Positions 12,715 through 44,259 of a DNA stretch of 64,000 nucleotides are shown here, in pieces. The stretch lies in assembly GCF_000026545.1 (NCBI RefSeq), contig NC_011601.1. One strand, written 5' to 3'. Both the position numbers and the translations under genes were made by a program. The notes beneath the pieces are model-generated. The model had not been told where the DNA came from. It saw only the letters and a list, made by a program, of their open reading frames with translations, and searched no databases. How positions within the stretch are numbered: position 1 is the stretch's first letter; each line of letters starts with the position of its first letter. Source of the stretch: Escherichia coli O127:H6 str. E2348/69 (GTDB lineage Bacteria > Pseudomonadota > Gammaproteobacteria > Enterobacterales > Enterobacteriaceae).

Positions 12715-12835
12715 GTGCGGCCTGAAAAACAGTGCTGTGCCCTTGTAACTCATCATAATAATTTACGGCGCAGCCAAGATTTCCCTGGTGTTGGCGCAGT
12801 ATTCGCGCACCCCGGTCTAGCCGGGGTCATTTTTT
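12715..12835 (+). ncRNA. arcZ: ArcZ (SraH/RyhA) Hfq-dependent small RNA
   Basis: 121 nt stretch beginning GTGCGGCCTGAAAAACAGTGCTGTGCCC and ending in the GC hairpin CCCCGGTCTAGCCGGGG plus T-run, which I recognise as ArcZ; convergent with arcB and overlapping its stop codon. Confidence 0.85.
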
Positions 12836-24891: not shown

Positions 24892-26382
24892 TTAACTTTT
24901 GGTTTTGACTAAATCGTTTTTGGCGCTGCCAAACGGCACGGCACCGCTAAATGGTTTGCCGTCGATAGCGTCATGAGTACGCAATGCTTCCGGGCGCAGC
25001 CAACGCTGAACACGAGAAGGCATATCCAGACCAATCAGCAGGATCACCACAAATGTCAGACTGAACGAGAGCGATGCCAGCGCAGTACCCAGATCCAGAC
25101 GTTGAGCGATCAACGCGCCGATGATTGGGGCCAGTGCACCGCCCAATGCGCCAACGTTGTAGGTAAAGCCCAGGCCCGCTGCACGCTGGTCGGTATCGAA
25201 ATAACCGCCAATCAGTTTCGGTAAGATCCCAGCGATCCCTTGTCCAAGCATTTGCTGGAAGAACAGTAACAGACCGAGCACCCAGACGTTTGCGCCGCCA
25301 ATCGCAAATACCGGAATAATCAGCAGCTGCGAGGCCAGCAGACTACAAACGTACGCTTTGCGGGTTCCCAGCCAGTCACCGAGGAAGCCACCGACGCAGC
25401 ACCCCACCGCCGCGCCAAAGCCACTAAAGAACAGCACATTGGCGACAGTATGCGGGTCATAAGCCAGATCGGTTTTCAGATACGTTGGCAGCAGCGCCTG
25501 AATCGGCCATGAGTAGAGGAAAGCAAACAACACGACCACCATCAGCATTACGCCCGTTGGCCAGCGTTTGCCCGTACTCTGCACCATAAAGCTGATAAAG
25601 ATTGCGGCGCATAACAGCCCAAGAACAGCGACGATCGCGGCATTTTGCAGGTTACCGGCGAAGCAGAACCACAGCGCAGTAGCCGCCGCCAGTGTCATTA
25701 CGATATTGGCAATGCGATGTTCACCACGGTAGAGAATATCCACCATTGTGCGTACCGGTGCTTTACCCCCGTGTTTCTCTTTCCAGTCTTCCGCTTCCGG
25801 GATGTTTTTACGCAGCCAGAGAGCAAAGATGATTGGCAAAATGCCGATAAAGAACAGCGCACGCCAGCCCCAGACCGGAACCACCAGACTATAGACCTGA
25901 GCGGCAACGACGGCCCCCACTGAGAAGCCTGAAATCAGAAAACCACTGGCTTTGTTACGCAGATGCTTTGGCCAGCTTTCAATGACATAGGTGGCGCTGG
26001 AACCGTATTCACCCGCCATCCCCATGCCAATGACCAGACGAGCGATAAACATGGTGATGTAGCCTGGCGCAAAGCCGCAGGCCAGCGTCCCGGCCGAGAA
26101 GAGAACGATGCTGGTGACCATTGCCAGACGACGCCCGTAGCGGTCACCCATAGCGCCGAGCATCAGGCCGCCGAACCAGCGAGAGATAAAGGCTGCGGAG
26201 ATCAGACTTGCCGCCTGCACCGTCGTCAGCCCGAATTCACCCTGTACTTCGGTGAGTACCAGGGCGATTAAAACGAAATCAAAACCGTCAAGCAGATATC
26301 CCAACCAGGCAGCGGAAAATGCCCGCCATTGTGCGCGGTTAAGATGGCGATACCACGGGATATTCTGGGTTGTAGTACTCAT
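24892..26382 (-). CDS. nanT: NanT, sialic acid MFS transporter
   Basis: ORF 24892..26412; start at ATG 26380-26382 ([15 protein letters not shown]), 496 aa, multi-TM. Confidence 0.93.
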
Positions 26383-26490
26383 TGTGAGTCTCCCGCGGTG
26401 GGCGATGCCCACACGCTTTGGTATGAAAATTGTAGGGTACAGATGCGTTTATTTCCCCTCACCCGGTAGGGGCGAGCGAGGAGAAACAAC

Positions 26491-27384
26491 TCACCCGCGC
26501 TCTTGCATCAACTGCTGGGCCAGCGCCTTCAGTTCTGGCAGATATTTTTCATCTACCGGACCAAACGGTTTGCGGCACAGCGGCACAGAAACGACATCCA
26601 TATAATGCAGGACAGTTTTCAGGCCGCGGAATACACCAGTTTTTATCAGTAAATCAATGACTTTATTGCACTCAGTTTGCAGTTTCTGCGCGGTCTGGAT
26701 ATCGCCTTCTTTCAGCGCCTTCACGATCCCCTGATAACGCCAGCCCATGATGTTGTAAGTGCTGCCGATACCGCCGTCTGCGCCCGCCAGAAGACCAGAG
26801 GCGAAAATTTCGTCGTAACCGTTATAGAGCACCAGATCAGGATGTTCACGACGGATCTGCTCCATCTGATAGAGATCGCCAGAGGTCTGTTTCAGCGCAC
26901 CTACACCAGGCAGCGTAACCAGGGTGTTGATCTGATCCAGGGTCAGTTTTACCCCGCTCAGGGCTGGAATGTTGTACACCACCATCGGCAACCCATCCGC
27001 CGAATCAATAATTGCCCGATAGTGATCGCAGTGTTCTTCAAAGCTGAAAGGATAGTAGAACGGCGTGACGGCGGAGACGGCATCGAAGCCATAACGTTTA
27101 GCCGATGCCGCAAGTTGTTGGCTTTCGGCGGTGCTGACGCAACCGACGTGGGCGATGAGTTTAATCTTACCTTTCGCCTCTTCAGCGACGATTTCCAGTA
27201 CCTGTTCACGCTCTGAAAGGCTCTGTACAAAGGCTTCGCCTGTCGAACCCCCCACGTACAAACCGTCGATGCCCTGCTGAATATTGAACTGAACCAGGCG
27301 GCGCAGACTCGCTTTATCCAGTGCTTGTTGTTGGTCAAAAGGAGTCAGGAGTGCAGCCATTACGCCACGTAAATTCGTTGCCAT
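26491..27384 (-). CDS. nanA: NanA, N-acetylneuraminate lyase
   Basis: 297 aa, DHDPS/NAL family ([16 protein letters not shown]). Confidence 0.96.
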
Positions 27385-42574: not shown

Positions 42575-42629
42575 TTAATATTGTACTGTTACGTTGTACA
42601 AACCTGTGCCAACGGGTTTCCCTCACCCT

Positions 42630-42637
42630 AACCCCAG
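42630..42637. repeat. Left copy of 8-bp flanking direct repeat AACCCCAG (target-site duplication)
   Basis: Identical 8-mer immediately abuts both IS termini (42630-42637 and 44188-44195). Confidence 0.75.
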
Positions 42638-42656
42638 CTGTCTCTTATACACAAAT
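42638..42656 (+). repeat. IS left terminal inverted repeat
   Basis: CTGTCTCTTATACACAAAT; overlaps a perfect 10-bp stem ACAAATCCCC / GGGGATTTGT at 42651-42674. Confidence 0.85.
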
Positions 42657-42802
42657 CCCCACCCGGGGATTTGTGATGTCTGTCAGTCTGCTTTAGGGGG
42701 ACTCTTTCCATCCGGTAGTTTCCTTCCTCCCCGGCAGCGATTTTTTGAACTTTTTCCTCACCCGTTGATCTTCTCTTATATTTCATTTTCTTCGGGTCTG
42801 TT

Positions 42803-44176
42803 ATGGTACTTTCTGATTGTTATTCATGGGCTAACGAGCAGTTTGGACATGCCCGTCTCGGTGATCCGCGTCGTACACGACGCCTTGTGTCACTGGCCTC
42901 TTCTCTCGCTCAGCATGCAGGTCTTTCTATTGTGAAATCATCCCAGTCCACTGCTCAGGTTGAAGGTGCGTACCGCCTGATACGTAACCCGTCTGTGTCC
43001 CCGCAAGCCATTGCCGAAGCCGGATTTACCGCCACTGTAAGGGCATGTGAGGCTCATCCGCTGCTCCTCGCGCTGGAAGACACCACCACCATTAACTTCA
43101 GTCACAGTACGGCATCTGATGACCTGGGGAATACCACCACTAACCCGAAGACGCGCGGGCTGCTGGCTCACTCTGTCCTGATGTACGCCCCCGACAGCGC
43201 CCTGCCAGTCGGTCTTATCGAACAGCAGCGCTGGAGTCGTGCCACGGACACCTACGGTGTTAAGCACCAGCGAAAAGAACGTCCCTATGAAGAAAAAGAA
43301 AGTTACCGCTGGCAGCAGGCTTCGGAGCGCATGGCCGAACGGCTGGGGGAGATACAGAAACGGGTAATCACTGTCTGTGACCGGGAAGCGGATATCTGGC
43401 ATTACCTGCATTATAAAGTCAGCCACGGGCAGCGCTTCGTGGTGCGTGCAGCACAGAATCGCCGGCTGGAAGAAGCACCCGGCAAGCTCTTCGAACTGCC
43501 GGAAGTCCTGGCAACCGCGGGAAGCCACACGCTGAATGTGATGCAAAAAGGCGGGCGGGCAGCCCGCCAGGCCCGGATGTTCATCAGTTACAGCGAAGTC
43601 AGCATAAAAAATCCCGACAACAGCGGCCAGGCGCTCCCGCTCACGTATGTCTGTTGCCGGGAGCAGGCAGAGGACGGCGCCTGCTGGCATCTGCTGACGT
43701 CAGAAAAAGTGGCGAGTGCCGCCGATGCGCGACGTATCGTCAGCCATTACGAGCGACGCTGGCTGATAGAGGAATACCACAAGGCGTGGAAAAGTGGTGG
43801 TACATGTGTGGAATCGCTGCGAATGCAGACCCGGGATAACCTCGAGCGCATGGTGGTTATCAAGGCGTTTATCGCGGTGCGGGTGCTGGGCCTGCGGCAG
43901 GGCGGTATCAGTGAAGAAACACAAAATGACAGCTGTGAGAAAATACTGACGCCGACAGAGTGGAAACTGCTGTGGGTTAAGCTGGAAGGAAAACCGCTTC
44001 CGTCACAGATGCCGACACTGAAATGGGCCTGTCTGAAACTGGCGAAACTGGGGCGATGGCATGACAGCAAACGCACCGGTCGCCCCGGTTGGGTAGTCAT
44101 GTGGGATGGCTGGTTCAGACTTCAGGATATGGTTGAGGGTTACCTGGTGATGAAGTCTCTTGATCAGGAGATCTGA
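42803..44176 (+). CDS. IS50-group DDE transposase (Tn5 Tnp homologue)
   Basis: 457 aa; blocks shared with Tn5 Tnp: GDPRRTRRLV, EGAYRLIRNP, LALEDTT (D93), VCDREADIWHYL (D193), YERRWLIEEYHKAWK (Y316-R319-E323-K330 YREK signature), DSKRTGRPGW; stop codon lies inside the right IR. Confidence 0.92.
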   Translation: MVLSDCYSWANEQFGHARLGDPRRTRRLVSLASSLAQHAGLSIVKSSQSTAQVEGAYRLIRNPSVSPQAIAEAGFTATVRACEAHPLLLALEDTTTINFSHSTASDDLGNTTTNPKTRGLLAHSVLMYAPDSALPVGLIEQQRWSRATDTYGVKHQRKERPYEEKESYRWQQASERMAERLGEIQKRVITVCDREADIWHYLHYKVSHGQRFVVRAAQNRRLEEAPGKLFELPEVLATAGSHTLNVMQKGGRAARQARMFISYSEVSIKNPDNSGQALPLTYVCCREQAEDGACWHLLTSEKVASAADARRIVSHYERRWLIEEYHKAWKSGGTCVESLRMQTRDNLERMVVIKAFIAVRVLGLRQGGISEETQNDSCEKILTPTEWKLLWVKLEGKPLPSQMPTLKWACLKLAKLGRWHDSKRTGRPGWVVMWDGWFRLQDMVEGYLVMKSLDQEI

Positions 44177-44187
44177 TCAAGAGACAG
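44169..44187 (-). repeat. IS right terminal inverted repeat
   Basis: Plus strand AGATCTGATCAAGAGACAG = reverse complement of CTGTCTCTTGATCAGATCT. Confidence 0.85.
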
Positions 44188-44195
44188 AACCCCAG
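44188..44195. repeat. Right copy of 8-bp flanking direct repeat AACCCCAG
   Basis: Identical to 42630-42637. Confidence 0.75.
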
Positions 44196-44259
44196 AGGGG
44201 CGAGGGGACCGTTCGTACACGGAGAAGGATTAATTATCCTTCTGAAAATACTGAAATTA

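Follow-up and report, generated by a model that had tools for sequence, protein, structure and literature searches.

A BoxC repeat interrupted by ISEc13 at aaeR-tldD and a probable BoxC remnant between nanA and nanT in Escherichia coli E2348/69

Results

The stretch of DNA analysed here, referred to below as the window, is 64 kb of the chromosome of E. coli O127:H6 str. E2348/69. Two of its intergenic regions carry the same pair of short GC-rich sequences: copy 1 lies between nanA and nanT, and copy 2 between the convergent genes aaeR and tldD. A preliminary description of the window had reported the pair twice, beside these same genes, and its positions agree with ours within 1-2 nt. CCCTCACCC is found at 26456-26464 and 42620-42628, and AGGGGCGAG at 26468-26476 and 44196-44204, each occurring twice in the window. 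The uninterrupted pair CCCTCACCC...GGGGCGAG is present at a single place, 26456-26476, in the nanA-nanT spacer. Taken singly, each 9-mer is mildly unexpected (two occurrences observed against 0.2-0.35 expected); the combined pattern appeared in none of 100 dinucleotide-preserving shuffles of the window.

At copy 2 the two halves are separated by an insertion sequence of 1550 bp (42638-44187, plus strand), which lies exactly inside the motif, as had been proposed, and is flanked by an 8-bp target-site duplication, AACCCCAG, at 42630-42637 on the left and 44188-44195 on the right. The element is 100% identical to RefSeq copies named 'IS4-like element ISEc13 family transposase', and belongs to the IS4 family, with a Tn5-type DNA-binding N-terminus. 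The ends of this copy read CTGTCTCTTATACACAA... and ...AGATCTGATCAAGAGACAG, and the terminal inverted repeats of ISEc13 are CTGTCTCTT.../...AAGAGACAG. Its transposase ORF (42803-44176, 457 aa) matches NF033590 with 514 bits (cut-off 160) and also NF049926, and contains the domains PF14706 and PF01609. ISEc13 is present at 30 places in the E2348/69 chromosome.

When the element and one copy of the duplication are removed, the junction reads ...TTTCCCTCACCCTAACCCCAGAGGGGCGAGGGGACCG... This agrees with the empty site CCCTCACCC-TAACCCCAG-AGGGGCGAGGGG reconstructed in the preliminary description. The corresponding 400-bp junction is uninterrupted in 5416 of the 5425 E. coli genomes that match it (with 99.8% identity in ATCC 11775), and therefore the reconstruction is right and the occupied state is rare.

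By sequence, CCCTCACCC corresponds to block 1 and GGGGCGAG to block 3 of BoxC, a family also known as PIT and TMECO. BoxC is a GC-rich intergenic repeat of three blocks, with a 36-nt core (about 50 nt with flanks) and roughly 20-30 copies per E. coli genome. A list of 22 members in K-12 is given in the supplement (E.coli_BoxC.txt) of Petrillo et al. 2008 (PMC2267715), and Holder et al. 2015 (PMC4666352), who list 23 TMECO members, trace the family from BoxC in the 1990s through the PIT elements (2000; Hoyne/Maher) to TMECO. Within the published K-12 BoxC set, 20 of the 22 members contain CCCTCACCC and 17 of the 22 contain GGGGCGAG; 15 of the 22 have both halves in order, with a gap of 16-17 nt. 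The block sequences CCCTCACCC / CCCTCTCCCC / GGGGCGAGGGG and the type-A TAA and type-B CGG loops agree with those of the family.

For copy 2 the assignment is clear. An nhmmer profile built from the published K-12 members matches the sequence with the element removed at 35.6 bits (E 8.5e-10), in an alignment that spans positions 3-50 of the profile and has a single gap of 6 nt, and also finds 44190-44216 in the raw window (E 7.3e-5). The element at aaeR-tldD in K-12, CCCCTCACCCTAACCCTCACCCCAAAGGGGCGAGGGGACCG, is identical to eco:13_BoxC in the list of PMC2267715, and TMECO no. 14 of PMC4666352 is its reverse complement. In the window the left part of copy 2, TTTCCCTCACCCTAACCCCAG (42617-42637, plus strand), holds block 1, the type-A TAA loop and the rest of block 2 up to the insertion, and the right part, AGGGGCGAGGGGACCGTTCGT (44196-44216, plus strand), holds block 3 and the conserved 3' tail. 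Across 5425 E. coli genomes, a 50-mer from K-12 aaeR-tldD has between 2 and 35 places in each, with a median of 18.

The preliminary description had suggested a small intergenic repeat family, and had named membership of an already catalogued repeat as one observation that would refute it. Both copies do lie between genes, and the family is dispersed and multi-copy in the genome. However, comparison with the catalogues identifies the pair as blocks 1 and 3 of BoxC, and therefore the family is not new; the core finding is already known. The genome search that had been proposed, for the two halves within 12 nt of each other, is not well suited to this family, because canonical BoxC copies, with a gap of 16-17 nt, escape it. 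A scan of genome contigs for CCCTCACCC-N(0-12)-GGGGCGAG gave at least 120 matches, and among the matches listed nearly all come from high-GC Actinobacteria, Deltaproteobacteria and similar taxa, where they are presumably due to chance. The sole relevant locus among those listed is in Enterobacter, where a two-block sequence, CCCCTCACCCCAGAGGGGCGAGGGG, lies beside an inverted partner. Rfam has no family at either motif site at the gathering threshold, giving only noise at E values up to 10. By eye the motif bears no resemblance to what we take to be the REP (PU) consensus. REP/BIME sequences are likewise short GC-rich imperfect palindromes in transcribed intergenic regions, but consist of a single palindrome present in far more copies, in contrast to the three blocks of BoxC. 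A published survey of stem-loops treats BoxC and PU-BIME as separate families, and the literature gives copy numbers of 22-32 for BoxC and 301-485 for PU-BIME.

Alignment of the aaeR-tldD spacer from five strains shows that its length differs in steps of 6 bp, within a series of CCCTCA/CCCTAA/CCCTCT hexamers. K-12 and CP53 have all three full blocks, and AVS0967 has lost 12 nt. Copy 2 differs from the canonical element in being split by the insertion sequence and in lacking 6 nt from its middle block: its first and third blocks are intact, and a deletion common to the window and ATCC 11775 has reduced block 2 to CCCC. The 6-bp steps probably reflect slippage between the CCCTNN hexamers, and one hexamer was lost in the lineage of the window before ISEc13 inserted. 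We infer that slippage between internal direct repeats is a general route by which BoxC decays.

The two halves had been described as not being reverse complements of each other. In fact CTCACCC and GGGCGAG fail to pair at a single position only, and each copy folds into an imperfect hairpin. In copy 2 either block 1 or block 2 pairs with block 3, with ordinary shuffle z-scores of -1.1 to -2.0. These are unremarkable because GC-rich shuffles fold nearly as well, and folding energy by itself does not set BoxC apart.

The nanA-nanT spacer is 108 nt long (26383-26490). Both genes are on the minus strand; the nanA stop codon is at 26491-26493 and the nanT start codon ends at 26382. Copy 1, CCCCTCACCC-GGTA-GGGGCGAGCGAGG (26455-26481, plus strand), does not have the three-block architecture: block 1 is CCCCTCACCC, block 3 is GGGGCGAG with a duplication of CGAG, and GGTA lies between them. 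Because it has two blocks only, it is classed here as a putative internally deleted, type-B BoxC remnant rather than a canonical member, and a three-strand (triplex) fold is impossible for it. Its match to the BoxC profile is weak: 9.6 bits and E 0.11 when the window is searched, with a gap of 12 nt; a second possible alignment, on the opposite strand, has 4.7 bits. Copy 1 is absent from the published lists of 22 BoxC and 23 TMECO members. In 5408 E. coli genomes the 131-bp region around copy 1 is found with at least 95% identity and no change in length, and so copy 1 is no recent accident of one strain.

Orthologous nanA-nanT spacers were retrieved from six other genera through their NanA homologues. 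The spacer of Pseudocitrobacter faecalis contains a complete inverted pair of BoxC elements, one of type A and one of type B (profile E 2.5e-14 and 1.7e-7). That of Kluyvera has a two-block BoxC-like hairpin, and those of Salmonella, Klebsiella, Citrobacter and Enterobacter have unrelated sequence. Copy 1 aligns with the type-B element of Pseudocitrobacter, the two having in common TTTCTCC in the 5' flank, the CCG loop of type B, GGGTGAGGGGA and, in the 3' flank, AAACGCATC; the distal part of the spacer is likewise conserved between them. Most simply, copy 1 can be read as a type-B BoxC whose middle block would have been lost, leaving blocks 1 and 3 to pair with each other. The comparison, with one informative outgroup, suggests an origin by deletion and not an independent one. 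Comparable two-block decay is seen at aaeR-tldD in AVS0967, where 12 nt are missing, and at the Enterobacter locus mentioned above. The nan copy is an uncatalogued degenerate member of the family.

Different repeat families appear to have colonised the nanA-nanT position in different genera: the spacers of Citrobacter enshiensis and Enterobacter bugandensis look REP/PU-like by eye (GCCGGATAAG...).

The motif of copy 1 and its flanks are predicted to form an RNA hairpin of 17 bp with a 7-nt loop (CCCCUAC) at 26449-26489 on the minus strand, beginning 1 nt past the nanA stop codon. On the mRNA strand it has a folding energy of -23.8 kcal/mol (z = -5.28), and none of 200 shuffles reached this stability; for the opposite strand the values are -15.6 kcal/mol and z = -2.58. 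The mRNA strand folds better because three mismatches of the opposite strand become G.U pairs on it. The whole spacer has a folding z of -3.9. At position 26482 most E. coli, including K-12, have G, which turns a U.G pair into C-G. The hairpin lies inside the nanATEK transcript and is fixed across E. coli. It is not an intrinsic terminator, having no T-run after the stem, which is followed on the mRNA strand by AAAUAAACG; a promoter at copy 1 was likewise rejected. No terminator-like site (either strand) and no promoter-like site was detected in 26300-26600.

A second, small hairpin, GUGGGCAUCGCCCAC, is located at 26398-26412 on the minus-strand RNA, directly before the CGCGGGAGACUCAC-AUG of nanT, so that it adjoins the nanT Shine-Dalgarno sequence on its upstream side. 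Conservation of this hairpin extends across E. coli, Pseudocitrobacter, Kluyvera, Klebsiella and Salmonella, with a closing pair that is G-C in E. coli, A-U in Salmonella and G.U in Klebsiella. It may be a conserved element for the translation or processing of nanT. In the mechanical ORF list nanT extends over 24892-26412 on the minus strand (506 aa) with a GTG start at 26412, whereas the RefSeq start codon ends at 26382, giving a gene of 1491 nt and 496 codons. The annotated start is the more plausible, because the longer ORF would cross the conserved hairpin and the Shine-Dalgarno sequence.

Further ISEc13 insertion sites were collected: ten in CP148541.1, a copy in dgoD in E2348/69, and others from metagenome contigs, viral contigs and other E. 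coli genomes. Sixteen complete sites could be reconstructed. They reveal a palindromic target, CYCY-N8/9-RGRG, with the duplicated bases in its centre; eleven sites have a duplication of 8 bp and five one of 9 bp. Thirteen of the 16 match this consensus, against a background of about 1e-4, the loose fits being dgoD, L127 and L134. The first 13 sites, drawn mostly from two related genomes, always have C at -4 and -2 and G at +2 and +4. Of the 16 sites represented by their left flank alone, 13 show CYCY at the offset expected (background 1.7%) and 3 do not fit. Quoted P values are inflated, because the consensus was derived from and first tested on the same sites; among sites gathered after the rule had been set, all 3 complete ones and 8 of 9 with the left flank only fit it.

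With the duplicated segment in brackets, the empty site in the window is CCCT[AACCCCAG]AGGG, and a second, full-length BoxC was struck at the equal relative position, CCCT[CTCCCCAA]AGGGGCGAGGGG. Other examples are AACCCTCT[CCGCCCGG]AGAGGGTT, ACTCCCCC[GCGTGAAGC]GGGGGAGT, a terminator, ATCCCC[CCGCTCGG]GGGGATTTTTTT, and a prophage hairpin, GCCCCT[GTTTATGC]AGGGGC, located between a KilA-N gene and an antiterminator-Q gene. The prophage hairpin is a hot spot that has been struck independently: ISEc13 is in one orientation at L131, L188, L192 and L200 and in the opposite one at L160 and L195.

All 22 published BoxC copies contain CYCY-N8/9-RGRG. The preliminary description had raised a possible preference of such elements for the motif, and this holds in part: ISEc13 does prefer a short palindrome that is present in BoxC, but terminator hairpins carry the target too. 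Among the 16 complete sites 2 fall in BoxC, and one site with the left flank only (L156) is BoxC-like; the rest of the complete set consists of hairpins, either terminator-like or from prophages, and a single coding site, in dgoD. The share of 2 in 16 is not clearly above the share of BoxC among available targets, and the consensus has 11 start positions in the 64-kb window. A preference specific to BoxC was therefore rejected. ISEc13 lies inside a BoxC copy because BoxC carries the short palindromic target that the element prefers, and its insertion at copy 2 is target-directed and not BoxC-specific. The transposase would select the symmetric CYCY-N8/9-RGRG and duplicate its central 8-9 bp, and every canonical BoxC has such a site, preceded by block 2 (or block 1) and followed by block 3.

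Copy 1 also holds a good target, CCCT[CACCCGGT]AGGG, and in none of the 5408 E. coli genomes is it split in a way consistent with an ISEc13 insertion. Insertions there could be selected against through polarity on nanT, nanE and nanK.

The dgoD (galactonate dehydratase) site is the sole coding-region site among the 16. It is in E2348/69 NZ_CP059840.2 (11111-13460), where ISEc13 leaves two pseudogene fragments, and fits the consensus loosely, TCTCT[CCCATGCA]GGCGG.

Two ISEc13 copies in CP148541.1 (L132, about 2,304,317-2,307,690; L133, about 2,364,794-2,368,167) have no matching duplications. Swapping their flanks restores the 8-bp duplications CTCCCCAA and CGAACCAG. This points to recombination between ISEc13 copies in opposite orientation, with inversion of about 60 kb. 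Of the two original sites, one is a BoxC of full length.

Discussion

We consider it very probable that, taken as a whole, both motif copies belong to BoxC, with copy 1 a remnant of it, and that ISEc13 entered copy 2 in a target-directed manner. Copy 2 should accordingly be annotated as a BoxC/TMECO element disrupted by ISEc13, and copy 1 as a BoxC-derived intercistronic hairpin in nanATEK; neither site needs a new class of repeat.

It is scarcely credible that intergenic DNA rich in GC shares these 9-mers by coincidence and that the insertion sequence took its position by accident. Each 9-mer alone exceeds expectation only modestly, and many high-GC genomes have the pattern, presumably by chance, but the shuffles did not reproduce the combined pattern and the ISEc13 target consensus is far from random; for copy 2 the profile match and the presence of about 18 places per genome refute chance. 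A small repeat family distinct from those catalogued in E. coli is very improbable. It would account for the lack of copy 1 from both published lists and from Rfam, yet copy 2 is orthologous to a listed BoxC/TMECO and the two halves are the consensus of BoxC blocks 1 and 3. An alternative that concerns copy 1 only is that it evolved independently as a functional stem-loop in the nan operon RNA, such as a processing site or a stabiliser between the cistrons, and resembles BoxC by convergence. The low profile score would be expected, as would the much better folding of the mRNA strand with its three G.U pairs (z -5.3 vs -2.6), the fixation in 5408 genomes and a common polymorphism (26482) that keeps the pair. 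We nevertheless find this quite unlikely, given that copy 1 has the 13-nt TTTCCCCTCACCC, the GGGGCGAG block, the CCG loop and both flanks in common with the orthologous BoxC of Pseudocitrobacter, and that two-block decay products occur in AVS0967, in Enterobacter and in the literature; moreover, descent from BoxC and a present function can coexist. As points of difference from BoxC, copy 1 has two blocks, the CGAG duplication and no entry in the 22-member and 23-member lists.

As to the insertion, ISEc13 might recognise a DNA structure, namely a hairpin or cruciform at GC-rich palindromes, and not the bases of CYCY and RGRG. Many of its targets are true stem-loops that go on pairing past the four conserved positions: among the first 13 sites, 7 have five or six of the six flanking pairs complementary, a level reached by 0.6% of random positions, and several targets are terminators, such as the one shown above. 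Against this, the reverse polarity (G-rich arm, spacer, C-rich arm) would make an equally good hairpin and is found in none of the sites examined, positions -4, -2, +2 and +4 are invariant in sequence in the first 13 sites, and sites that pair poorly beyond these positions are still used (L126 and that in the window). Recognition of structure is unlikely. At all examined sites the C-rich arm is 5' of the duplication, which favours recognition of the sequence by a symmetric transpososome over recognition of any hairpin, and we infer that the target is chosen by its bases.

The best-supported account of BoxC is that of a structured, largely neutral dispersed repeat. Consensus TMECO oligonucleotides form an intrastrand triplex in vitro (PMC4666352), and Holder et al. 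also describe degenerate TMECOs, derivatives that are stem-loops only, and a 'palindrome effect'. Published work on BoxC/PIT reports no promoter or terminator activity, no effect on polymerase in vivo, no functional bias in the neighbouring genes and no proven function, and any function of the nan hairpin is speculative for this reason. Our best guess, held with low confidence and by analogy with REP, is that the nan hairpin may act as a barrier to 3'-5' exonucleases that favours expression of nanA over nanT; REP hairpins stabilise upstream mRNA. Its strand-specific stability and its fixation in the species are compatible with such a role and do not prove it, and it may equally be a neutral relic. 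It is a candidate for setting the nanA:nanT expression ratio.

The target rule of ISEc13 is possibly the sole new item here. In the searchable literature, with ISfinder outside the scope of the search, no description of the target choice of ISEc13 was found: papers that mention the element do no more than name it, and the IS4-family review is silent on it. Symmetric targets are known in the IS4 family: A-GNTYWRANC-T for Tn5/IS50, NGCTNAGCN for IS10 and GGG(N)5CCC for IS231A. ISEc13 resembles these in having a DDE transposase with a Tn5-type N-terminus, a duplication of 8-9 bp and a palindromic target, which is expected because a symmetric transpososome should give one. It differs in that its conserved bases lie outside the duplicated segment, in the CYCY and RGRG flanks, and its specificity appears much stronger than the weak preference of Tn5. 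Elements that target palindromes are also known, IS1397 and ISKpn1 inserting in BIME loops. REP is the target of IS110-family elements such as ISPpu9 (PMC12288879). ISEc13 similarly enters the apex of a GC-rich palindrome or terminator, but with a transposase of another family and with no limitation to one repeat family.

The rule predicts where ISEc13 will land, and accounts for most of its copies being at hairpin apices between genes, where they are harmless. We suggest tentatively, and with slightly less than even weight, that ISEc13 is strongly site-selective through CYCY-N8/9-RGRG, and that BoxC/TMECO elements and many terminator hairpins are built-in landing pads for it. If true, this would explain how some 30 copies persist in E2348/69 with little gene disruption. 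Raised local variability has been reported at BoxC loci, with its mechanism unexplained; the present results link an active insertion sequence to such loci, and, if the suggestion is true, the landing pads would supply one mechanism for part of the unexplained genomic instability around TMECO loci.

An unoccupied site of this kind is also present elsewhere in the window, in the gene for the small RNA ArcZ (12715-12822, plus strand; Rfam RF00081, 120.8 bits), whose 3'-terminal hairpin, presumably the terminator, has the sequence CCCCGGTCTAGCCGGGG at 12810 and fits the ISEc13 target.
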